Assembly: GCA_014297435.1 (NCBI GenBank)
Contig: JACOQA010000002.1
Coordinates: 128,001-192,000, forward strand
DNA length: 64,000 nt
Reading direction: 5' to 3'
Source of the DNA: Candidatus Nanohaloarchaea archaeon
GTDB lineage: Archaea > Nanohalarchaeota > Nanosalinia > Nanosalinales > Nanosalinaceae
Part shown: piece by piece, positions 1,600 to 29,954 of the stretch
Layout: every line of letters begins with the position of its first letter
Position numbering within the stretch: the stretch's first letter is position 1
The notes under the pieces: generated by a model
The model's database searches: none
Seen by the model: only the letters and a program-made list of their open reading frames with translations
What the model was told of the DNA's origin: nothing
Translations under genes and position numbers: made by a program

Positions 1600-2547
1600 A
1601 TGTCTGAAGACGATATAGAACTTGAAGATCTAAACGGAGTTGGAGCAAAGACAGCGGAAAAGCTTAGAGAAGCAGGATACGACGATCTGATGTCGATCGC
1701 GACCATGAGCGCTGGAGACCTCGGCGAAGTCGCAGACCTAGGAGAGAAAAAGTCTCAGAAGATTATCACTGGCGCACGTCAGGAGCTCGATATCGGATTC
1801 GAGTCCGGTAAAGACCGTTACGATCAGAAAAAGGAGATGAAGAAAATCTCCGCCGGCGCAAGCAACCTAGACGACCTACTTGGAGGTGGCGTCGACACAC
1901 AGTCCATAACCGAATTCTACGGAGAGTACGGAAGCGGTAAGACACAGATCGGACACCAGCTATCCGTAAACGTTCAGAAACCTGAAGGAGAAGGCGGACT
2001 TGACAGAGACGTCATCTACATCGACACAGAGGACACTTTCGTCCCTCAGAGAATCGAGGACATGGCAGAAGACCAGGGAATGGACGTAGAGGAAACACTT
2101 GACCGGATCCACGTTGCCAGAGCATTTAACTCAGACCATCAGATGCTTCTAGCCGATGAGGCACAGGATATCTGCCAGAGCGAGGACATCGGACTAATTG
2201 TTGTCGACTCCTTAACAGCGCAGTTCCGTGCAGAGTACGTTGGAAGAGGAGAGCTCGCACAGCGACAGCAAAAACTCAACAGGCACATGGCCACACTACT
2301 GAGACTCGCAAACAGCCATAACGCAGCGGTAGTTGTCACGAACCAGGTTATGTCGAACCCAGACCAGATGTTTGGCGATCCTACGAAAGCTATTGGAGGA
2401 CACATCGTCGCACACAACTCCGCAACAAGACTTTACCTCAGAAAAGGCAAGAAAGGTAAAAGAGTTGCAAAACTGGTTGACTCACCTTACATGCCTGAAG
2501 GAGAAGCTGTTTACAACATCGAGGACGGCGGAATTAAGGACGCTTAA
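1600..2547 (+). CDS. radA: DNA repair and recombination protein RadA
   Basis: HhH N-terminus, Walker A GEYGSGKT, YIDTEDTF, GRGELAQRQQKL, IGGHIVAH. Confidence 0.97.
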   Translation: MSEDDIELEDLNGVGAKTAEKLREAGYDDLMSIATMSAGDLGEVADLGEKKSQKIITGARQELDIGFESGKDRYDQKKEMKKISAGASNLDDLLGGGVDTQSITEFYGEYGSGKTQIGHQLSVNVQKPEGEGGLDRDVIYIDTEDTFVPQRIEDMAEDQGMDVEETLDRIHVARAFNSDHQMLLADEAQDICQSEDIGLIVVDSLTAQFRAEYVGRGELAQRQQKLNRHMATLLRLANSHNAAVVVTNQVMSNPDQMFGDPTKAIGGHIVAHNSATRLYLRKGKKGKRVAKLVDSPYMPEGEAVYNIEDGGIKDA

Positions 2548-3146
2548 TCGGTTAAAGCGTAGAAAGCCGAGTTGTAAACCTCTCTTACTTTCTCCTCTAA
2601 TTTATGTTCTTCAACACGGAGCTCTGTCAGAAACTCTCCACCTATATTTGAAGAGATCTCATAACCCTCGCCATCTTCTCTAACTTCTATACGTCCGGAT
2701 TTATCGGCGTAGTCTAAGTCAAGCCATGAACGGGAATCCCGTCTGTTGATACTTGACCTTTCAACATGCTCGTAACCTACTAAATCCCTGAAAAATTCGT
2801 AAACCTCATCAAGACCTTTTTGGTCGTCGAGAATATTCTCCTCTTCAACAGTCTCTTCGTTGATAAAGCCTTCCGGACCTTTCTCTTCAAATTCAGTATT
2901 GAATTCCTCGAACTCTTCATAAAGCCGTTGAGTTTCTTCAAAACCTCCTGTCGTCAAGAAAGACTCTATTCTGTGAACATCTATTTTTCTGAGATCTTCT
3001 ATCTCGTTGCTTATCTCTCTAGGCGACTTTTCTTCAATAAAGTACTTTTCAAACACGTTAACAACAGGTATAGGCTCCGAACTTAGATCTTCTGCCGCGT
3101 AGTAAGGCTCTCCTCGTATCCGCTCTATAAACTGAAATTCGCCCAC
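2544..3146 (-). CDS. Hypothetical acidic protein
   Basis: 200 aa Glu-rich ORF converging on radA; no recognisable motif. Confidence 0.6.
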   Translation of the reverse strand: MGEFQFIERIRGEPYYAAEDLSSEPIPVVNVFEKYFIEEKSPREISNEIEDLRKIDVHRIESFLTTGGFEETQRLYEEFEEFNTEFEEKGPEGFINEETVEEENILDDQKGLDEVYEFFRDLVGYEHVERSSINRRDSRSWLDLDYADKSGRIEVREDGEGYEISSNIGGEFLTELRVEEHKLEEKVREVYNSAFYALTD

Positions 3147-3210: not shown

Positions 3211-3471
3211 TTAGATGATATCGTCTTCGGAAACGATAACGAAATCTCCGATTGATCTTACTGCAGAGAAGGGAACAATATTTCTTCCTTTCCTGTCTTC
3301 TTGGAGCTTGACCTCATCAATATGCTCCGTAGTATTTGTTATGAGCAGGTTCATCAGTTCTCCGGTATCAGCGACGAACGAGATGTCTTCTACCTCTCCA
3401 AATCTTTTTCCTTGCTCTTCCGAGACAATTGTCTTTCCTACAAGCTGCTTTCCACGTGGCTTATCCGACAT
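3211..3471 (-). CDS. PRC-barrel domain protein
   Basis: LVGKTIVSEEQGKRFGEVEDI...DTGELMNL...VPFSAVRSIGDFVIV; start at MSDKP. Confidence 0.85.
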   Translation of the reverse strand: MSDKPRGKQLVGKTIVSEEQGKRFGEVEDISFVADTGELMNLLITNTTEHIDEVKLQEDRKGRNIVPFSAVRSIGDFVIVSEDDII

Positions 3472-3523
3472 ATTTTTTGCACCGTATAATAAGTTTATCA
3501 GCACCGGAAAGTTAAAAGTTTAC

Positions 3524-4060
3524 ATGGCTCGGGTGTTCACGGCTTTCGACATCGAGGACGAAAAAATCCTCGAAGAGCTTAGGGATATCCGAGATCGTTT
3601 TGACCTAGGTTTCAAACCCGTACCCTGTGAAAAGATGCATCTTACGTTCGAGTTCTTCAAGGATGTAGACGAAGATGGGATAGAGAAGCTCAAGAGATGT
3701 CTAGACGATGTTGAAGTCGGAAGCTTTCATTCAAGACTGAAAGGCGTGGGGGCTTTCCCCTCTCAGGAGCACACCCGGGTGGTCTGGGCTGGCGTTGAGA
3801 ACGGAAAGTTCCATAATTTATACCGCCGAGTGTCCTCTCACGGAGTTGAGTCTGACAACGGTTACGACTTCGTTCCGCACGTAACCCTTCTTAGGGTTGA
3901 AGATGTTAGTGGCGAGAGAAAGAGAAAGTTACGTAGAATGTTAAGAGAGTTCGAAGACCATGACTTTGGGGGTATAAAGGTCGATAAACTCAAGCTTTTC
4001 CGTTCGGATCTAAAACCTGAAGGATCCGAATACTCTGAATTATACGTGAAGAATCTTTGA
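3524..4060 (+). CDS. thpR: RNA 2',3'-cyclic phosphodiesterase (2H family)
   Basis: Two HxT motifs (MHLTFEF, PHVTLLR), RVFTAFD start, GVGAFP..RVVWAG; true start ATG 3524. Confidence 0.92.
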   Translation: MARVFTAFDIEDEKILEELRDIRDRFDLGFKPVPCEKMHLTFEFFKDVDEDGIEKLKRCLDDVEVGSFHSRLKGVGAFPSQEHTRVVWAGVENGKFHNLYRRVSSHGVESDNGYDFVPHVTLLRVEDVSGERKRKLRRMLREFEDHDFGGIKVDKLKLFRSDLKPEGSEYSELYVKNL

Positions 4061-4398
4061 AGTTTAAGCTATACGCTCTATCCGTCCTCTTATCGGTTAT
4101 AGGTCTAGGCATTATGTACGCTTCCTCTATCTATGTTGAACCGCCTGAGGTTAAAGTTGGATCTATCGATGCATCATGGAACGGAAAGCCGGTTAAGATC
4201 AAGGGTACAGTCCGAGGTCATACTAACGTTTCAAACAATATCTTCATCGATCTCAAAGATCCGACAGGTGAGATAACGGTTCTGAGCTTTGATTCGAAAA
4301 CTCGACTATCGAAAGGCGATCGTATTCAGGTTCAAGGTAACGTTGAACTTTATCGTGGAAAGGTCGAGGTTATCGCCAACAACATCACCAGAATATAG
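4057..4398 (+). CDS. Membrane-anchored OB-fold protein
   Basis: N-terminal TM helix; LKDPTGEITV...GNVELYRGKVEVIA. Confidence 0.75.
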   Translation: MKFKLYALSVLLSVIGLGIMYASSIYVEPPEVKVGSIDASWNGKPVKIKGTVRGHTNVSNNIFIDLKDPTGEITVLSFDSKTRLSKGDRIQVQGNVELYRGKVEVIANNITRI

Positions 4399-4419
4399 AA
4401 AATCATAACCTCGCCATTT

Positions 4420-4705
4420 ACGATCAATTTACTATCTTTCAGAACGATACGAACTATGATATAGTGTAATAATTATAGTAGAGTAACTATCTCGATTTTA
4501 TCGTGTGCTTCATCGCCGACTATACTAAAACCATACTATTATACTAAAGCCCCTATTTGACGATCATCGTCAACTATGCAGGAACTATACTATTATGATC
4601 CACTAACTATCTGACGTTAAAGTAACGATCAACGTGAACTATACCAGATCATAATCATTATTATCTACTATCTATCTACGATGATCACGAACTATTCTAA
4701 GCTAT
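4420..4705. repeat. Non-coding array of ACTAT/ACGAT motifs between convergent genes
   Basis: ACTAT at 4431, 4453, 4486, 4519, 4535, 4573, 4584, 4589, 4606, 4638, 4667, 4691; ACGAT at 4420, 4444, 4560, 4625, 4678; no ORF of 60 aa or more. Confidence 0.75.
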
Positions 4706-4745
4706 AATCATTATACTGAAGAACAAGAAATTTGGAGGAGAAGAA

Positions 4746-6242
4746 CTAGTTTTCTAGCTCAAGATTATAGATCTCTCCATACTTTCCACGAATATAATTC
4801 AGGAAGGGCTCAGAATTAATTGGCTCATTAGTAACTTTCTCTATAAGCTCCTCGGTTTTAAGCAATCTGCCCTTGGAATGGATGTGAGTTTTAAGCCAAT
4901 CCCTCAAGTCTTCAAACTCTCCGGATTCAATCTTTTTCTCCAAGCCCTCGACCTCTTCTTCTGCTTCACGGTATATCTGGGTGGCTAAAACACTTCCTAG
5001 GCTGTAGGTCGGGAAATAACCAAAGTTGCCCCATGCCCAGTGAATGTCCTGCATAACGCCCTCAGAATCTGTCTCAGGCTCCAAACCAAGGTATTTCTCC
5101 ATACGCTTGTTCCATTCTTCTGGAAGATCCTCCACCTCTATCTCTCCATTCATTAAGGCTCTTCCAATCTCGAACCTCAACACTATGTGAAGATGGTATG
5201 TAAGTTCATCCGCTTTCACACGGATCATATTATCCTCGTATACCTGATTGATCGACTCATAACAGTCCTGAATCGAGATCTCCTCGAACTTTTCCGGAAA
5301 CCTTTCCTCAAGCTTCGGAAGCATAAATTTCCAGAACTCCTTCGACCTACCAACCTGATTTTCCCAAAGTCTCGACTGAGACTCGTGTACAGAAAGCTCT
5401 CTAGCCCCTCCTCTAGGAGTGGCGTAATCTCCCTCCGGAAGACCTAACTGGTACAGTGCATGACCCAACTCGTGTATTGTAGGCATAAGCGAACCCGAAA
5501 GATCTCCTTGCTCAATACGAGTAGTTATACGTGTATCAAAGGTGTTTCCCGAAGTGAAAGGATGTTCGGAGCAGTCAAGTCGACCGTTTTTCTTGTCAAA
5601 ACCAAGAAGCTCCGCCAACTCATGATTGAGCTCCATCTCTTCTTCGTCCTCGAAGTCTCCCTTGAATGCATTTTGCTCTATATCTTCAGCTTCAGATATT
5701 TTCTCAACAATAGGTACAAGACCTTTCTTCAAGTTCTTTAGAACTTTCTCCATTGTTTCGTAGCCTATATACGGCTCATAATCCTTGAACAATACCTTGT
5801 AGGGCTCTTCATCTGGATTAATCTGGTTAGCATAGCGACGCTTTAATTCAACTAGTTCTCTAAGTTCTTCAGCAAAAAGCTCATAATTATCCTCTTTCTT
5901 TGCTTTCTTCCAGGCATTTACAGCCTCTGACTCTTTCTGAGACATCTTCTCCATCAAATCTGCAGAAACACTCTTCATTCTTTCACGTTCACGTTCAATC
6001 TCACGAACATTAGCCTTCTGGCTTTTATCTAGATCGCGCCTATCTATTGATTCCAAAAGCTCTCCAAGTCGTTCCGAAACAAGTTTCTCATGCCTTAGTT
6101 TCGTCAAAACACTCTTCTGCTTTGATCGAGCTTCTAAACCTTTTTCAGGCATCATTACTTCTTCATCCCAGCCCAGAACGCCTACGGCTTCCTCAAGATT
6201 TCCTAGAACCTTTACCTCTTTTTCGAACTCTTCGTAGCTCAT
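4746..6242 (-). CDS. Carboxypeptidase M32 (Taq-like)
   Basis: HPF, DTRITTR, HELGHALY, HESQSRLWEN, IRVKADE, GVMQDIHW, GYFPTYSLG. Confidence 0.96.
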   Translation of the reverse strand: MSYEEFEKEVKVLGNLEEAVGVLGWDEEVMMPEKGLEARSKQKSVLTKLRHEKLVSERLGELLESIDRRDLDKSQKANVREIERERERMKSVSADLMEKMSQKESEAVNAWKKAKKEDNYELFAEELRELVELKRRYANQINPDEEPYKVLFKDYEPYIGYETMEKVLKNLKKGLVPIVEKISEAEDIEQNAFKGDFEDEEEMELNHELAELLGFDKKNGRLDCSEHPFTSGNTFDTRITTRIEQGDLSGSLMPTIHELGHALYQLGLPEGDYATPRGGARELSVHESQSRLWENQVGRSKEFWKFMLPKLEERFPEKFEEISIQDCYESINQVYEDNMIRVKADELTYHLHIVLRFEIGRALMNGEIEVEDLPEEWNKRMEKYLGLEPETDSEGVMQDIHWAWGNFGYFPTYSLGSVLATQIYREAEEEVEGLEKKIESGEFEDLRDWLKTHIHSKGRLLKTEELIEKVTNEPINSEPFLNYIRGKYGEIYNLELEN

Positions 6243-13808: not shown

Positions 13809-13902
13809 CACACCTCATATAGCTTTCTAAGACGTTAAAAGACCGCATTATTGCCCGGTACAATATACATCCTTAAAATAAAGTAGGCGAATACCTTGAA
13901 CC

Positions 13903-14838: not shown

Positions 14839-14959
14839 TACAATCACAATATTTTGGTAGGTCACAAGCCTTGTAGTAATCCACTAGTATAGCCTAGTAA
14901 TAGAAAGAAAGCATAGCATGTTTAATAAGGTCTAAGCAGGGTATTTACTCCCTGTGACG

Positions 14960-18629: not shown

Positions 18630-18880
18630 TTTTTAGAAGCCTCTTTGATCTTTTCTTCGAATTTTTGCTTGCTCATCTCGAGCTTGAGCTCTTTTCTCCT
18701 TGATTTTGTCCCAGAGACTATTCCCGGACGCTCCCCCAGTATTTTTTCGAGACGGGACCTAAGTTCTGCGTTTGCCCTGCCATTTTCAGCCCTGTTCTCC
18801 AAGTAGATCTTCGGCATAAAACCGGTTTCTACCTTGAAATTTTTCGAGTCAGGCTCTACCTTTACTTTGACAGTGGTCAT
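18617..18880 (-). CDS. DUF167 (YggU/UPF0235) family protein
   Basis: VKVKVEP, AENGRANAEL, IVSGTKSRRKEL. Confidence 0.8.
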   Translation of the reverse strand: MTTVKVKVEPDSKNFKVETGFMPKIYLENRAENGRANAELRSRLEKILGERPGIVSGTKSRRKELKLEMSKQKFEEKIKEASKKWEK

Positions 18881-18885
18881 AGTAT

Positions 18886-18957
18886 GTGGCTGCCCTGTAA
18901 CACGGGCGGTCATTCCCGTCCCTTAAGGTCTCGTCCGCTGACTTCAGGACAGCCTAC
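18886..18957 (-). ncRNA. Candidate structured RNA (multi-way junction)
   Basis: Closing stem GGCUGUCCUG/CAGGGCAGCC (the G-U pair favours the minus strand); inner stems GUC/GAC, CC/GG, ACGGG/CCCGU; TTATTTAA box about 25 nt upstream. Confidence 0.5.
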
Positions 18958-18994
18958 AACTAAATCATCAGTTCGAACTGTTAAATAACACCGG

Positions 18995-19693
18995 TTACTG
19001 GAAGAAAACCCCTTCTTCAGGTACAGGCTTGAACTCAGCCTGGCGGGTCTTGGTCTGTACAGGCTCTTCTCCGTGATACTTCCTGAGGTACTGGAAGTAC
19101 TCTCTTGTTTTCTCCCGTGCATACTCCCCATCATAGTCGATTCTTTCCTCTCCCACGTAGAACATGAAAGCCCACCTGAAGAACTTGTTGAGAGGCCTTG
19201 TAACTATTCTAGGCAAGAACTGTATTCCCTGAGGCATATCGTACTTGATGTATGTTCTTACAAGATATTCGATTCCTCCAAAGTCGTTTTCTCCTGATGG
19301 TGGTGTTCGGGTTCTTAAACGAGTCTTTATCTTCATGCTGGCGCCGAAACTTCCCCCATTACTCGGCAGATCTCCTTTAATGTTCATAGTGGAGCGGAAA
19401 TCGTTCGAATCCTTATTCTGCATGAAGAACTCTTCCTTGGGGCGACCCATCTCCATGTTCTGCTTGAAGATATACTTGTGCTCCTCGTAGATCGAAGGAA
19501 TGTGGGGCGACTCGTACCATTCTACACGGTTCTGTATCTCCATCCAGTCGTTGAATATGTGGACATCGCTCCAGATATCATCGCCCTCGCCAAACTTGTG
19601 CTCTTCCCATTTACCGCCTTCCCCTATGTTGTAGGTTCCTGGCGTATGAAGCCATCCTAGAAGCTTCTTGTAGAATGGCGGTTCTTCGCTCAT
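18995..19693 (-). CDS. Hypothetical protein (paralogue trio, 3 of 3)
   Basis: 232 aa; aromatic C-terminal helix pattern shared with the two upstream ORFs. Confidence 0.75.
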   Translation of the reverse strand: MSEEPPFYKKLLGWLHTPGTYNIGEGGKWEEHKFGEGDDIWSDVHIFNDWMEIQNRVEWYESPHIPSIYEEHKYIFKQNMEMGRPKEEFFMQNKDSNDFRSTMNIKGDLPSNGGSFGASMKIKTRLRTRTPPSGENDFGGIEYLVRTYIKYDMPQGIQFLPRIVTRPLNKFFRWAFMFYVGEERIDYDGEYAREKTREYFQYLRKYHGEEPVQTKTRQAEFKPVPEEGVFFQ

Positions 19694-19699
19694 ATTATC

Positions 19700-20320
19700 C
19701 TAGCTCCAAGGAGGACTGTAATGGGAGGATCCGGAGCGGTGGATAGTTTTTTCGACTCCAAACTTCTCCCTCATCAGGTTTTGAATATGCACCATTATCT
19801 CTTCTGCCTCTTCCTCGTACATGTGGATCTCTTTTGAGTAAAATTTGTGGTACCAGATACCTGTAAGTATATCATAAAGCTTAGTCTTCTGGAAACGCGA
19901 CTTGTGTTCGCGGGAAAGACCTGGTTTATCCCAGTTATCCTCAGGAACTTCTTTCATTCCGCCCGGCTCCCAGGGAATAGGCGAGCTACCCGGATAAACT
20001 GTCAAAACTTTGGCCGATGTTTTAACACGGGCTTTATGTATATCATCAGGTCTTTCCATCTCGTAGATATCTTTAGGACGTTTCGCACGGAAACTAAGAT
20101 TGAAGTAAAGCGTTGTGTGCGGCGATTTTTCTTTGAACGCATGCATTCTTATCTTGTCCTTGGGCTTGGCGACGTTGAACTCCATCTTGCCTTCTTCTAT
20201 CCTATCGATATCGAACTCCTCGACAAGCAGGTCTTTCAAACCCCTGTAGATTCTAGCCGGATCCTCTTTTACGAAGAAATGGTCTTCTTTGGTGCCGGCA
20301 TCTTCCTCGTATAAAACCAT
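19700..20320 (-). CDS. Hypothetical protein (paralogue trio, 2 of 3)
   Basis: EDPARIYRGLKDLL...IEE matches EDPESAYPELKDLL...VEE of its neighbour. Confidence 0.78.
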   Translation of the reverse strand: MVLYEEDAGTKEDHFFVKEDPARIYRGLKDLLVEEFDIDRIEEGKMEFNVAKPKDKIRMHAFKEKSPHTTLYFNLSFRAKRPKDIYEMERPDDIHKARVKTSAKVLTVYPGSSPIPWEPGGMKEVPEDNWDKPGLSREHKSRFQKTKLYDILTGIWYHKFYSKEIHMYEEEAEEIMVHIQNLMREKFGVEKTIHRSGSSHYSPPWS

Positions 20321-20322
20321 TT

Positions 20323-20766
20323 TTAGGTCTCCACCGTCTGTCTCAGTCTTGTCATAAGTTCTTCAACTTTTTCTTCAACCGCATGCTCCCATTCATGTCT
20401 TACTTCTCCGTAGAGAAACTTGTCGTAAAGCGCTCTATACGCATAGTACCACAGGTTGTCTTTCCATCCCTCCATCGGATAATGAGTTACGAGGCTTCCT
20501 TTGACCTGGACATCAAGTTCTCTGGAATCTTTTCTTATTACAAGAAATATCTCTAGCTCCATAACCGTGTGAGTGTCGAACTCTTCTACAGCGTTGATTC
20601 TTGAACGGACTGTGCCTTCATCTATATCGTGGTAGTATTTCTCCTCCACCACTTTGTCGAACGACATCCTGCGTTCTAAGAGGTCTTTTAGTTCGGGGTA
20701 GGCGGATTCGGGATCTTCCAATATAATGGTTTGTCTTCGGCGTACCGCCTCCTCGGTTATGTCCAT
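20323..20766 (-). CDS. Hypothetical protein (paralogue trio, 1 of 3)
   Basis: Start MDITEE; co-oriented tight operon with 2-6 bp gaps. Confidence 0.78.
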   Translation of the reverse strand: MDITEEAVRRRQTIILEDPESAYPELKDLLERRMSFDKVVEEKYYHDIDEGTVRSRINAVEEFDTHTVMELEIFLVIRKDSRELDVQVKGSLVTHYPMEGWKDNLWYYAYRALYDKFLYGEVRHEWEHAVEEKVEELMTRLRQTVET

Positions 20767-24400: not shown

Positions 24401-26395
24401 GCCGCAGTTAGGACAGTAAGAGAAATACGTAAGGTTTTCACAGTCCGTGCATCTGTTATGTACTATTCCTTCGTTTACTGTTCCTTTGTTGTATGATGCA
24501 GTCAGGTTTCTCATCCTTCCGCCTTCTTCCTTCCCGCAAGGGAACAGTAGCTGTGGTTTCCCCTTGATGGTTCTTCTTTCAGCTTTCTCCGGACGCCCCA
24601 TCCTTGAACCAAGATAGTGAGGGCACTGCTCTCTTACTTCGATACCTGAAACAGATTCAATGAACCCCGGTATATCCTTAGAGGATTCAATTTTTTCTAA
24701 CTCTTCGTTATTATCTTCGTGAGGTCTTAGAAGACCTTTCATCACTTTAAGATCTTTCTTCCTTATCTTGATCTTTTCGTCCTGCTGCTTGTGCTGTACA
24801 AGAATGTCTTCCAAGGCTTTCTTTGTTTTCTCTCCCTTAATCTCTCCTTCCTCAAGAGAGCTGTAGAGTGCTTTGAAGTTTTCGACCGGGGTTTCCCGCC
24901 AGTGGTATGTCCATTTCGGATGCATCGGGATATCAAGCTTCTTCGAGATCTTGAAAGCTTCCTTCGGACTAGGATCTCTTTCAGTAAAGTCCCGACCAAG
25001 CTTTACTCCTTTCTCCTCTAAAGCTTTCTCAAGCTCTTTCTCCCACCACTCCTCGACGTAAGGCGATGGAAGTAGTTTCTTTCCGTTCTCTACAAACTCC
25101 CCGTACGGAACAAGCATATCACCTAGGAAAAGTATTTCGTCGACTCTTTTCTCGAGTTCCCGTGCTTTCTCACGTGTCTCAACCTTTACGACATCGCCGT
25201 TTTTTAGACGTACAACAGGAGGATGAATAGAGTCGCAAGGAGTTCCTACTGTAGCCTTTCCAGGGTATTCGATCTTCAGCTGTGTTCCTATCGCGATAAA
25301 ACGTTCAGTTACTTCCATCGTTGCTGGATGGAATGAGGCTGCTGCAAGACCGTTTGTTCTTGAGTGACCGTATCTCAGCCTGAAACCACCTTTCTTCCCC
25401 GGATGACCAAAAATCGGTCTACCTGCGGTTAAAGAACCTAGGAACTTGTCGCTCGGCGTGTATTTAGACTTATCCTCTTCTTCATCTCCCTCATCCTCAT
25501 CGTCGCTCGAGTGGATCTCTTTCTGTAGATCTAGGTAGTCTCCTACCCATTCCCAGTGTTCAAGACCGAATTCTTTACCCCATTTTTCGATACGTTTCTT
25601 GATCTTAGGGGCTTTGAGCGGGAGTCCGTCTAGATAGACGAGACACATTCCTCCTCTAATCCTGTTAGTATCTATTCTTTCGAGGTCTTTGTAATTTGAG
25701 ACGTCAAGTGATTCGGTTGGCGACCCCGTGACTTCGATTGGAACGTTGTCTGCGATCATCTCAGTCTCTTCACGCGTAGGATTATACTGCTTTGCGGTAA
25801 CCCTGTTGTAATAGTCTTCTACCTCTGCGCCGTATCTTTTCACGACAGTTTCTGAAGGCTTGAATTCATCGAGATCTACTCCTATCCTTACGTAGTCTGA
25901 TAGAAGTACGGACATGGCGGATGCAGTTCCTCCCGCAGAACGGATAGGTCCTGAGTAGTATACCGCCAAGTACTCCGTTCCATCGTTATTTTCACGGATC
26001 TTAATCTCTCCAATACCTTCAAGAGGCGCTGTGGTGATACCTCCTGTCATGTAGGATACTCCGACCCTTATTCCTGCGTTACAGGCTCTTTCCTTATCTT
26101 CAAAATCATAGAAGTTGCCTTCTGCGATTTCTCTGGCGATTGAGAACGCTACACGCTCATCGTTTTTACCGTACTCGTCTTCAAGCTCACGTATTCTTTC
26201 CGCGACACCTTGATCTTCGAGTTCCGGGAACTTTGCGGCGATTACCAGGCTTGAAGCCTTTTCAGGTAGATCTGTGGCGACAGGAATGTCTACCCTTTGC
26301 TCCGGGTCTTTGGATTGTTCTCTGGCTTTCTCCGCCACATCATACGCTTTATCTGTTTCCTCCGAAATTCGTTCAAAGTATTTTTCAGTATCCAT
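21443..26395 (-). CDS. polC: DNA polymerase D large subunit DP2 (intein-containing)
   Basis: GPIRSAGGT, GGFRLRYG, RMGRPEK, KDGTVRYD, HAAKRRNADGDED, MDAPL, C-terminal Zn finger. Confidence 0.97.
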   Translation of the reverse strand: MDTEKYFERISEETDKAYDVAEKAREQSKDPEQRVDIPVATDLPEKASSLVIAAKFPELEDQGVAERIRELEDEYGKNDERVAFSIAREIAEGNFYDFEDKERACNAGIRVGVSYMTGGITTAPLEGIGEIKIRENNDGTEYLAVYYSGPIRSAGGTASAMSVLLSDYVRIGVDLDEFKPSETVVKRYGAEVEDYYNRVTAKQYNPTREETEMIADNVPIEVTGSPTESLDVSNYKDLERIDTNRIRGGMCLVYLDGLPLKAPKIKKRIEKWGKEFGLEHWEWVGDYLDLQKEIHSSDDEDEGDEEEDKSKYTPSDKFLGSLTAGRPIFGHPGKKGGFRLRYGHSRTNGLAAASFHPATMEVTERFIAIGTQLKIEYPGKATVGTPCDSIHPPVVRLKNGDVVKVETREKARELEKRVDEILFLGDMLVPYGEFVENGKKLLPSPYVEEWWEKELEKALEEKGVKLGRDFTERDPSPKEAFKISKKLDIPMHPKWTYHWRETPVENFKALYSSLEEGEIKGEKTKKALEDILVQHKQQDEKIKIRKKDLKVMKGLLRPHEDNNEELEKIESSKDIPGFIESVSGIEVREQCPHYLGSRMGRPEKAERRTIKGKPQLLFPCGKEEGGRMRNLTASYNKGTVNEGIVHNRCTDCENLTYFSYCPNCGSPADPVWFCSSCGHEHHEEADQCRQCGDERINRYKWTDIDVESLVDDAMDNLGMRHMPELLKSVRGMSGKNKHVEPIEKGLLREKHDLYVNKDGTVRYDASDIPMTHFKPKEISVSVEKLRENGYKEDVDGEPLEDDNQVVALKPQDIIIPDGENTLAASDYFVRVANFIDDLLEQFYGLEPYYNVEEKEDLVGSLVIGLAPHTSGGTVGRIIGFTKAKGIYAHPYWHAAKRRNADGDEDAILLLMDGLLNFSRDFLPDMTGARSITKDTRLTVRRNGEIESPRADELIDEVLEEEGFVTREDGFEVSRSFEDDVEAVSFDNDGNVKFEEVTALIRHENDKQVFNVKTSRGSISVTGDHSVFVTRGSEIEAKPVRELEEGDCVIVPSNPELGADGLPEEVDLFEIIEDEDCYVKVPDEERKELKPELETQITSEVTEEYGTNNVYRYKTGRRDAPLSFYKDVGVVPSCKVRLRANAEPVNRYFEDSKELYRLLGYLLSEGALDRGDIYNTDMEIIEDAAKCIEELTGVKPKIKEDVREDRKTCYAVRVPATFMKALEELGLERENFDSKSVPSFVFGAEKDKLRDFIEAYRAGDGSIYEEKGFSKLYTKSGEMATQLTLLVRKLGYKSSTRKAGETWEVLYSEWGEKDPFWPLWEVLDDARKQLRESDYSYEEIKTEFANDRKNNRMKAASKERVEKLFEKGVDSLSKPVEGDVSVERVVKIERVDYGNDYVYDLEVPGHQNFLCGPHPVFAHNTMDAPLILSTVLNADEVDDEAWATETVDEYPLSFYKETLEYKKPWELDTDIEIGEDIVHSDEPYRHGYTHETSTIENGPNQSEYVTLDEMSEKTSSQLGLGRKTKAVNEDEVAELLLNKHFIPDIKGNLNAFSSQKMRCVDCNEKFRRIPLTNQTIAPSGKPTAECPECDGKVLLTISEGTVKKYMQPAKDIIEDFEISPYTRQEILILNKTIQSLFGKDDRQSGLKQFTG
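22139..23608 (-). mobile_element. Intein with LAGLIDADG homing endonuclease (490 aa) in DP2
   Basis: Starts SITKDT after GAR; block B TGDHSVF; LLGYLLSEGA and FIEAYRAGDGSI; ends VYDLEVPGHQNF...AHN with +1 Thr (TMDAP). Confidence 0.93.
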
Positions 26396-28033: not shown

Positions 28034-29245
28034 CTATATGTAAAACTTTTCTTCTACGAGTTCGTTGATCTGACCTCTAATATCTTCGGAAAGATCGACG
28101 GATATCTGTCTTGTTCTTCCGTAACGCCCTTTCGAAATAACCTTGGCGTTGATAACCCCCAACATGTCAAGCTCAGATATCAGTCCTGAAACTCTTCTCT
28201 GCGTAAGCTTTGAGACATCTACGTCCTGGCAAAGCTCTTTATATTCACTGTAAACATCTCCTGTCGCTATCTCATCTTCATCCTCCGTCATATCAAGTAT
28301 AGTGTAGAGAACAAGTTTCGAGTGCTTAGGCTGATTCCTCACTGTTTCGACCACTCTGTCTCTTTCAATCTTCTCCTGTGCCTGGTCGACGTGATCGGTA
28401 GCTACTTCTTCGCTGCTGGATCTTTCTGCCAGTTCTCCTGCAACACGGATAAGATCTAATGCTCTTCTTGCGTCGCCATGTTCTTGAGCGGCTAAAGCAG
28501 AACATTTCGAGATAACTCCTTCCTCTAAAGTATCTTCAACAAATCCTTTTTCCGCCCTGTCCTTCAAAATTTCTCTAAGTTCTATCGCGTTGTAAGGCGG
28601 GAAGATTATCTCCTCTTCTGAAAGTGAGGACTTTACTCTTGAGTCCATGTACTCCGTAAAGTTTAGGTCGTTCGAAATCCCTACAATAGAAACTTTTGTT
28701 TCATCTAAGTCGTCGTTGATTCTTGTAAGGTTGTATAGGAATTCGTCTCCGACTTTTTTGACTAATGCATCGATTTCGTCTAATGCAATTATTACTACAC
28801 CTTTCTGTTCCTGTAGTGCTTCGAAGAAACGGTTGTAAACCTCATCGGTCGGAAGTCCTGTGCTTGGTACATCGTCTCCTAACTGTCCTGCAAGCTTAGC
28901 AAGTAAGCGGTACTCTGTATCGGCTACCTTCTTCATCTTACAGTTTATGTATACAATATTAAGGTCGACGTCCTCGTCTTCGGCAACATCGTTTAACTCA
29001 CCTGTAACGTGCTTTGTAATTAAGGTCTTCCCTGTCCCTACAGAACCGTAGATGAAGACGTTTGATGGATCGTCTCCTCGGAGGCTTGGTGCCAGAATGG
29101 ATGCGAGGTTGTTGATCTGCTGGTCCCTATGTAGTATGTTGTCAGGTTTCCAGTTGGTCGTAAGAGCGTCCTTGTTTTTGAAACAAGATTTCTTGTCGAT
29201 GTAGTCAGAGAACATCGACTTCAGGTTGCCCTGACTCAAAACCAT
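28034..29245 (-). CDS. cdc6: Orc1/Cdc6 replication initiator
   Basis: Walker A GSVGTGKT, LDEID, GDARRALDL, C-terminal winged helix SKGRYGRTR. Confidence 0.97.
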   Translation of the reverse strand: MVLSQGNLKSMFSDYIDKKSCFKNKDALTTNWKPDNILHRDQQINNLASILAPSLRGDDPSNVFIYGSVGTGKTLITKHVTGELNDVAEDEDVDLNIVYINCKMKKVADTEYRLLAKLAGQLGDDVPSTGLPTDEVYNRFFEALQEQKGVVIIALDEIDALVKKVGDEFLYNLTRINDDLDETKVSIVGISNDLNFTEYMDSRVKSSLSEEEIIFPPYNAIELREILKDRAEKGFVEDTLEEGVISKCSALAAQEHGDARRALDLIRVAGELAERSSSEEVATDHVDQAQEKIERDRVVETVRNQPKHSKLVLYTILDMTEDEDEIATGDVYSEYKELCQDVDVSKLTQRRVSGLISELDMLGVINAKVISKGRYGRTRQISVDLSEDIRGQINELVEEKFYI

Positions 29246-29285
29246 TCCCCTCTGTAGAAGTGCATTTGTTTTTGCCCCCGTGTTG

Positions 29286-29305
29286 GTTCCATTCGAAACG
29301 AAGGT
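29286..29305 (+). promoter_or_regulatory. ORB-like box near the cdc6 promoter
   Basis: GTTCCATTCGAAACGAAGGT. Confidence 0.7.
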
Positions 29306-29343
29306 TTAAGTATATACTCCAGATGAATTCCGTGTAAAACCAA

Positions 29344-29370
29344 CCCCCACCCCCTGTTTTCGTGTGGAAC
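29344..29370 (-). promoter_or_regulatory. ORB with G-string
   Basis: Minus strand GTTCCACACGAAAACAGGGGGTGGGGG. Confidence 0.85.
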
Positions 29371-29458
29371 TTAATCCTAACCACCCACCTACCGGTATAA
29401 CACTGTTATATTATATGTCGGTGTTATAACGTAAACTCGAACTCAGATTAGAAAATAA

Positions 29459-29480
29459 CTCCATACGAAACCGAGGGGTC
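29459..29480 (+). promoter_or_regulatory. ORB
   Basis: CTCCATACGAAACCGAGGGGTC. Confidence 0.85.
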
Positions 29481-29695
29481 TGTGGTTTAGAGGCAAAACC
29501 GGATAAAAATGGTCTAAACCATACAGCTAAACCGAAACCGGCAGAAACAATATAGAGAAAACAGACAACAAAACTAAGTTCTTAAGGTTTAGAGAAATAT
29601 TTATTGGTTTAGATAACAGCCAGAAAAACGTTTTAGAAGAATCAAAGATTTCCTAGTTTGATAAAATGCTTTAGAGTTGCTTAGAATGCTTGTTT

Positions 29696-29717
29696 GACCC
29701 CCTGATTTCGAGTGGAG
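29696..29717 (-). promoter_or_regulatory. ORB
   Basis: Minus strand CTCCACTCGAAATCAGGGGGTC. Confidence 0.85.
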
Positions 29718-29801
29718 AAGAGAGGGTATAGTTCTTAATATGGGTTATCGGAGAGTAATAATACCTCATATTTTAAGGCTTCCTGTTCGAGTAAGGAGTC
29801 A

Positions 29802-29954
29802 GTGAGTCACGGCTCAGGAAACCAACATTCAGACCCGGCAAGAAAATGGGAGAAAGCACTCGCCCATATCACAATCGCAATCATCCTCAGCATAGGACGA
29901 GTGACTTATTCAGTTTTCGCCTCAGTCTTCAGGATTCTGACACGGCTAGCCTGA
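29802..29954 (+). CDS. Putative 50-aa small membrane protein (below the ORF-track cutoff)
   Basis: GTG start; MSHGSGNQHSDPARKWEKALAHITIAIILSIGRVTYSVFASVFRILTRLA; TTTTAA box about 30 nt upstream and AAGGAG. Confidence 0.4.
   Translation: MSHGSGNQHSDPARKWEKALAHITIAIILSIGRVTYSVFASVFRILTRLA

Follow-up and report, generated by a model that had tools for sequence, protein, structure and literature searches.

The 347-bp non-coding island at positions 4399–4745 of the window (the whole stretch of 64,000 nucleotides that was analysed; the island starts at C8:132399 on its contig) is a degenerate head-to-tail tandem array of five ~53-bp units, situated between two convergent genes. The feature is real, unique in the genome, lineage-specific and under selection, and it falls outside any known family. 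In what follows, G000 denotes the genome under study and G001 that of a congener carrying the same array. The features of the locus, in window coordinates, are:

4057–4398, plus strand: OB-fold gene (113 aa, PF01336), its stop adjoining the left edge of the island
4399–4745: non-coding island between the convergent genes
4399–4443, plus strand: left edge with a short partial unit, ACGATCAATTTACTATCT from 4420 (repeat family D5)
4444–4505, plus strand: unit 1, long form with linker, ACGAT..CGAACTAT-N14-ATTAT..AACTATCT
4506–4559, plus strand: unit 2, short form with a GACTAT box, without a G001 counterpart (55-nt gap)
4560–4624, plus strand: unit 3, long form, ending with the linker GACGTTAAAGTA
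4568–4700, no strand assigned: conserved core, matching G001 at 108 of 133 positions in a gapless alignment
4592–4600 and 4647–4655: 9-bp inverted repeat (ATTATGATC and GATCATAAT), all nine pairs unchanged in both genomes
4625–4677, plus strand: unit 4, short form, ACGATCAACGTGAACTATAC..ATAATCATTAT..ACTATCTATCT, the best conserved unit
4651–4661 and 4704–4714: 11-bp palindrome ATAAT-C-ATTAT (ATAATCATTAT), second box of units 4 and 5
4678–4730, plus strand: unit 5, short form with a decaying 3′ end, ACGATGATCACGAACTAT..ATAATCATTAT
4716–4745, minus strand: pyrimidine-/T-rich stretch directly after the M32 stop, with T-runs likewise in G001; probably the terminator of M32 and outside the array
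4746–6242, minus strand: M32 carboxypeptidase gene, its stop adjoining the right edge of the island

The initial annotation had stated that the island was not a tandem repeat, a view overturned by a short-seed repeat search and a MAFFT alignment. TRF returned a single trivial 11-bp row, missing the array because its units are too degenerate. The short-seed search retrieved repeat families of 37–53 nt spaced by 54, 65 and 53 bp. Unit starts lie near 4444, 4506, 4560, 4625 and 4678 (spacings of 66, 54, 65 and 53 bp), and long units (65–66 bp) alternate with short ones (53–54 bp), the long forms containing an extra linker. The nine units of the two genomes, five from G000 and four from G001, align almost without gaps over 53 columns and yield the consensus acgATcatCgc.AACTATaC.aaA.cataAt.ATTAT..T..A.tAacTAT.T. 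In the first box, ACTAT is present in all nine units and the leading A of AACTAT in eight of them; in the second box, located 14 bp downstream of AACTAT, the ATT of ATTAT is invariant. The island accounts for four of the eight genomic matches to AACTAT-N13-15-ATTAT in G000 and for three of the six in G001, and the matches listed for the 39 other relatives were scattered, none of them side by side. The A[CT]TAT word is found 18 times on the plus strand versus 5 times on the minus strand in G000, and 13 versus 4 times in G001.

Symmetric elements are embedded within the units. Two palindromes that are perfect in G000, ACTATGATATAGT (ACTAT-GAT-ATAGT, 4453–4465) inside unit 1 and GACGATCATCGTC (GACGAT-C-ATCGTC, 4559–4571) at the start of unit 3, are not preserved in G001. 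Two of the six ATAAT-C-ATTAT sites in the genome are those of the island, and the G001 copy aligned to 4651–4661 reads ATAAT-G-ATTAT. Between the arms of the 9-bp inverted repeat sits GTTAAAG (4616–4622), which is invariant in G000 and G001 and resembles the TATA boxes of this genome, where TTAAAG peaks at −30 to −21 before start codons; this motif might act as a promoter. Helical phasing in G000 was not significant either for ACTAT (random positions matched the score in 2072 of 5000 trials) or for A[CT]TAT (a random score was as high in 386 of 3000), and it was absent from the boxes of G001. Conserved micro-ORFs were not found in the island apart from a frame of 7–9 codons (MIWYS..) on the minus strand, which is too short to judge.

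The motif counts and positions previously given for ACTAT, ACGAT, GATC, the palindromes and the composite ACGAT-N7-AACTAT proved exact on recount. The island, with a GC content of 33%, contains 12 ACTAT words on the plus strand versus 2 (read as ATAGT) on the minus strand, together with five ACGAT and six GATC. Of the GATC sites, those at 4597, 4627, 4647 and 4683 are conserved. None of 5000 dinucleotide-preserving shuffles reached the island count of ACTAT (shuffle mean 1.98) or that of AACTAT; the ACGAT count was reached by 31 of 5000 and the GATC count (shuffle mean 2.2) by 76 of 5000, the GATC excess being modest and residing mostly within the recurring words ACGATCA, TGATCA and AGATCA. 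Genome-wide, ACTAT occurs at 0.87 per kb per strand, and no second 347-bp window of the 1-Mb genome contains at least seven ACTAT on one strand. Over all 350-bp windows, the highest count of any non-trivial 5-mer is the 12 of the island, with a runner-up of 9, and three of the four genomic matches to ACGAT-N7-AACTAT are located here, at 4560, 4625 and 4678. The island also ranks within the 15 most AT-rich of 19,880 windows. Both the shuffles and the genome-wide scan thus place the motif density far above background, and no second copy of the island was found in the genome. The gap itself, singled out earlier for its odd size between convergent genes, is indeed unusual, the median convergent gap being 12.5 bp, but it is not unique, since 20 of 188 such gaps reach at least 300 bp according to a crude gene call.

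Two possible relatives of the motif elsewhere in the genome were rejected. ACTAT considered as a promoter or initiator word peaks at −3 before ATG (35 of 963), a position that the juxtaposition of ACT and ATG yields by composition. A second site at C1:12520–12581 has two words in common with the island, a likeness attributed to chance because the site lies inside a 349-codon ORF.

When the island DNA was compared by blastn with 41 genomes, a single real match was obtained, in the congener G001 (81% over 133 nt, E 1e-30); the remaining matches were short (E of at least 0.001), and the island was not detected in the 39 other relatives. A family-wide search detected it in 2 of 50 genomes and not in the other 48. 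A third relative is represented by protein P0004, encoded on a 2.3-kb contig. In G001 the array occupies the same site between the same two flanking genes, spans ~310 bp with four units, and contains nine ACTAT, all in one orientation and only some at homologous positions, an instance of motif turnover; its first bipartite unit overlaps the OB-fold stop codon. The M32 gene was detected in 15 of the 41 genomes, and the convergent OB-fold/M32 pair is also present in G002, G005, G007, G016, G018 and G022, where the two genes are separated by ~2–53 bp and no 300-bp window of the locus contains more than three ACTAT. G002, which lacks the island, is assigned to the same genus as G000 and G001. The short gaps of these six relatives therefore indicate that the array was acquired by insertion in the lineage from which G000 and G001 descend. 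The syntenic counterpart envisaged by the initial annotation consequently exists in the closest relative, and was not found in the others.

Wider searches were in agreement with this restricted distribution. An exact 19-mer of the core was recovered from G001 only, plus one chance match each in a metagenome contig and an unrelated bacterial MAG, and it had no match in IMG/VR. Degenerate unit patterns matched 6 and 64 loci in IMG/VR, all of them single sites without further likeness or an ACTAT cluster, and blastn of the island against plasmids and phages gave no match. A full-text literature search retrieved no intergenic tandem repeat of Nanohaloarchaea, and the portions available to us of the literature on nanohaloarchaeal replication origins and Orc1 contained no such element.

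The conservation of the array points to selection on its repeated positions. In a comparison resting on two sequences, the core, which was chosen after the alignment had been inspected, is 81% identical between G000 and G001, versus 51% at four-fold degenerate sites (1897 of 3723, from 34 orthologue pairs in a 53-kb syntenic block; binomial p 4e-13). Four-fold sites of the three flanking genes alone are 42–54% identical. The 51% value implies that neutral sites are near saturation, and the identity of the core equals the level of the flanking coding DNA. Columns in which at least four of the five G000 units agree are 83% identical between orthologous units (95 of 114), while the remaining unit columns are at the neutral level of 54% (49 of 90; Fisher p 7e-6); with a strict five-of-five definition the values are 84% versus 66% (p 0.007). 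Orthologous units are 63–79% identical (unit 1 and V1, 63%; unit 3 and V3, 73%; unit 4 and V4, 79%; unit 5 and V5, 66%), paralogous units 45–74%, and the random expectation is 29%. Each unit is nearest to its own orthologue, except unit 1, which is slightly nearer unit 4. This lack of concerted evolution indicates that the similarity of the units predates the separation of the two species and has been maintained, rather than arising recently. Taken together, the two-species comparison argues that the array is under purifying selection at the positions common to its units. The left edge (4399–4443) is about 62–68% identical to G001, and the ACTAT words of the core were kept in four of seven cases, no better than adjacent bases. 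Since other intergenic gaps of the same 53-kb block are 62–96% identical to G001, the island does not stand out from other intergenic DNA in this respect.

We tentatively favour, at somewhat less than even confidence, the proposal that the island is a polar multi-site DNA-binding platform for a putative sequence-specific protein. The general idea of a multi-site protein-loading platform, already put forward in the initial annotation, fits the data best, although its more specific versions (an origin, a methylation-regulated site, a centromere or a structured ncRNA) fare worse. Each of the five head-to-tail modules (four in G001) would constitute a candidate protein-binding site, presenting in one orientation an ACGAT(C)A word, the AACTAT box, the ATTAT box and a third (A)CTATCT box. 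The 14-bp step to the ATTAT box, which is sometimes extended to ATAAT-N-ATTAT, would amount to about two helical turns from box to box. Several protein units could load side by side to form one polar nucleoprotein complex ~290 bp long, on strongly AT-rich DNA at a distance of 25 kb from the replication origin. The distance of ~25 kb to oriC given previously was correct, with orc1/cdc6 at 28034–29245 and ORB-like boxes at 29349–29716. Such a complex might contribute to chromosome organisation or to segregation-like tethering near oriC, serve as a titration sink, or act as a roadblock between the convergent genes. We infer that the selected function of the array is exerted by the DNA and not by an RNA, that the array is bound by a protein, and that the resulting complex plays one of these roles. 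Constrained repeated modules in strict orientation, with palindromic sub-sites and a 9-bp inverted repeat, are what would be expected of an array of protein recognition modules. Against the platform, the orientation on one strand suits an RNA role equally well, the boxes lack significant helical phasing, the conservation of the island falls inside the intergenic range of its block, and the array is dispensable in most of the family because it is present in two species only, with five units in one and four in the other.

The polarity of the array bears directly on a second reading, which we consider unlikely, namely that the selected molecule is an RNA. Either a long 3′ UTR of the OB-fold gene or a little-structured sRNA starting from GTTAAAG would then carry A(C/U)UAU words, or AUAGU words if the other strand is read, that titrate an RNA-binding protein as a sponge in the manner of CsrB/RsmZ. 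The strand asymmetry of A[CT]TAT would be accounted for in this way, as would the position of the array, which starts at or right after the OB-fold stop, runs in the direction of that gene and in G001 begins by overlapping its stop codon. The plus strand is nearly without T-runs to end the OB-fold transcript, and the invariant TATA-like GTTAAAG is accompanied by a pyrimidine-purine step ~29 nt downstream on either strand. Nevertheless, TATA-like words are expected by chance at 33% GC, the plus strand has no conserved terminator, and elements such as the ATAAT-N-ATTAT palindromes and the 9-bp inverted repeat are more usually recognised in duplex form. The structured ncRNA proposed earlier is disfavoured by the folding analyses: the fold energy of the island is at the shuffle level on both strands (z +0.25 and −0.20), the energies of the two-sequence consensus folds were reached by 32 and 29 of 300 column shuffles, and compensatory pairs were ordinary. 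Weak structure would, on the other hand, suit a single-stranded binding platform. No Rfam family matched the island, the two snoRNA rows being at chance level (E 4.9 and 7.4) and lying outside it or at its left edge, and ARAGORN detected no tRNA in it. A relic without present function, which we judge to be quite improbable, would be a minisatellite, or else what remains of a control region of a mobile element, plasmid or virus; it would have been acquired before the two species diverged and would now be decaying slowly. Its restricted occurrence is consistent with such a history: six relatives with the same gene pair have the short gaps described above, and the array was not found in 39 of 41 relatives or 48 of 50 family genomes. 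Likewise, one unit is present in one species only, and the two perfect palindromes of G000 were not kept in G001. Slow decay, however, does not agree with a core 81% identical where neutral sites are at 51%, nor with columns common to the units being kept between species while the others drifted to the neutral level. Moreover, the genome holds no second copy, and no similar DNA was found in plasmids, phages, IMG/VR, metagenome contigs or species-representative genomes except G001. An origin of the units from duplicated 3′ ends of the flanking genes was rejected, as 115 of 300 and 52 of 300 shuffles scored as high. A decayed gene, whose homology had been named as a result that would count against the platform, was also rejected: all six frames are filled with stops throughout, in G000 and in the sister G001, the relatives contain no gene in their ~2–53-bp gaps, and the units, at 53 and 65 bp, have lengths that three does not divide.

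Replication-related readings were weighed against the platform as well. It is highly improbable, in our judgement, that the island is an iteron-type element, serving either as a second origin independent of Orc1 or, in a captured replicon, as the array for incompatibility or copy control, with an initiator loading beside easily melted DNA. Direct repeats in a single orientation, a position among the most AT-rich DNA of the genome and the mild enrichment of GATC are consistent with this possibility. Yet the units, at 53–66 bp, far exceed classical iterons of 17–22 bp, their periodicity is not significant, and the neighbouring genes (RadA, the orphan described below, PRC-barrel, ThpR, OB-fold, M32, M29 and M3) include no initiator or Rep-like gene. 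Neither an Orc1-type origin nor the second origin suggested earlier was borne out, since the island contains no ORB-like box even at three mismatches, compared with three such boxes beside orc1/cdc6, no initiator gene is adjacent, and the cumulative GC skew passes through the island at C8:132.4 kb and turns only near C8:157–160 kb. GATC control of the Dam/SeqA type found no support, PF02086 (D12-class, Dam methyltransferase) having no match in the 99%-complete genome; the suggested methylation-regulated site is further weakened by the modest GATC excess, mostly due to repeated words. The earlier statement that the island is not a CRISPR array holds, the units being alike over the whole 53 columns (45–74% identical) with no division into repeat and spacer.

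The array belongs to none of the named families with which it was compared. Centromere arrays of the sopC/parC type lie beside a parA/parB-type operon and consist of nearly identical units. The island resembles them in its non-coding head-to-tail units with a short, partly palindromic word, an arrangement on which, in those arrays, many protein copies form one complex, but differs in that it is chromosomal, restricted to two species and composed of units 45–74% alike. A centromere of the ParABS/SegAB type, or the partition site proposed earlier, is disfavoured both by this restriction and by the lack of an adjacent ParA-like gene: ParA-like ATPase genes of the AAA_31 family (PF13614) are present only at C9:56404, C8:29883 and C8:31195, the nearest ~100 kb from C8:132399. 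The iterons of R6K, RK2, P1 and lambda ori are regularly phased units of 17–22 bp beside a rep gene; the island shares with them the one-orientation direct repeats in AT-rich DNA, but not the unit length (53–66 bp), a detectable phasing or a rep gene. In titrating RNAs of the CsrB/RsmZ type, the words are exposed in hairpin loops of a folded, abundant RNA. The island, also non-coding, likewise repeats a short word many times along one strand, but shows no fold signal. With archaeal oriC regions bearing ORB boxes it has in common AT-rich intergenic repeats and a location within 25 kb of orc1/cdc6, whereas the ORB-like word of this genome, ACCCCCTGnTTTCGnGTGGA, is not found in it at three mismatches. 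According to the parts of the reports available to us, the Sulfolobus SegB sites S1 and S2 each consist of one imperfect palindrome of 23 bp, located immediately upstream of segA (PMC8682754), and the hpaS3 motif of Haloferax pHV3 is spread over six ChIP-seq peaks of a single replicon, on which hpaAB is encoded as well (PMC13722703). As far as those parts describe, these sites, like the island, consist of short AT-rich or palindromic words, and a small site-specific protein nucleates a larger complex there; the island differs in being one compact direct-repeat array without such an operon adjacent.

More specifically, and as a much more speculative suggestion that is probably wrong in this full form, the array might be a young cis-element of a DPANN archaeon, a polar sopC-like platform near oriC with a lineage-specific reader that is not ParB, SegB or Orc1. 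If so, the array and the sister genomes lacking it would provide a rare view of the birth of a centromere-like or chromosome-organising site. In a tightly packed ~1-Mb genome whose convergent genes usually abut, a selected non-coding insertion of 350 bp pays for itself. To our knowledge, hardly any cis-acting DNA elements have been mapped in DPANN archaea, whether centromeres, organisers or regulator arrays. Being small, unique and sharply bounded, with its "before" state preserved in sister genomes, the island is a convenient pull-down bait with which a new archaeal protein that binds DNA or RNA might be discovered. Were it a relic instead, it would indicate that motif-dense islands can persist in streamlined genomes.

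Among the neighbours, the distribution of the island is matched solely by an orphan gene at 2544–3146 (minus strand), located 1.25 kb away between radA and a PRC-barrel gene and encoding an acidic protein of 200 aa. It is found only in G000 and G001 among the 41 genomes, three proteins match it among 5.8 billion, and G002 has only ~140 bp at the corresponding locus. The protein has no Pfam or NCBIfam family. Its AlphaFold model (mean pLDDT 60.6) is confident only at residues 108–200; Foldseek returned nothing at E of 0.001 or below, and the best VIA-align rows (Z 8.6–7.8) were an immunity protein, CyaY/frataxin and Mediator Med17C, a level that is common for this tool. No usable Atlas feature match was obtained. 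As modelled, the C-terminal half resembles an alpha-beta sandwich of the frataxin, chaperone or immunity-protein kind, with no clear match to a DNA-binding fold, and the model lends no support either way to the orphan as a binder of the island.

Closer to the island, the 281-codon ORF at 3215–4060 that had been taken for thpR is too long at its start. A serine-rich, non-acidic segment makes up the first ~103 codons, and the LigT/ThpR domain follows from about residue 106, downstream of a Met at ~3524 (MARVF...). On the opposite strand, 3211–3504 encodes a 97-aa PRC-barrel protein (PF05239, E 1e-6). The DNA of this stretch is 88–97% identical to that of G001, far above the 51% of four-fold sites.

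The 600-bp gap at 29246–29845, upstream of orc1/cdc6 (minus strand) and close to the minimum of the cumulative GC skew, is likely oriC. Its ORB-like boxes are located at 29349, 29460 (minus strand) and 29697, two direct and one inverted, and a 19-bp palindrome spans 29393–29431. With up to three mismatches, the ORB-like word has five matches in the window, including these three; weaker ORB-like words lie at 25723 and 31668. Three further gaps conserved with G001 are candidate unannotated RNA or regulatory elements: C8:120706–120968, outside the window (263 bp, ORF-free, 34% GC, 87% identical), and C8:141823–141902 and C8:142866–142953 (window 13823–13902 and 14866–14953), both 91% identical. 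The most AT-rich DNA of the assembly, falling to 27% GC in 350-bp windows, lies at C12:~18700–20400 and is possibly foreign or mobile. Genome-wide, TTTAAA-like TATA boxes peak 21–30 nt before ATG, with T at −1, implying mostly leaderless mRNAs, and tRNA genes are preceded by GGTTTAAAA boxes ~40 nt upstream. ARAGORN identified only 34 tRNA genes in total. An apparent second tRNA 5′ half (GGGTCCATGGTCTAGTTGGTTATCC) lies within the 70 nt preceding the tRNA-Val call at C9:81268–81341, which suggests that some tRNA genes may carry introns or be mis-called.
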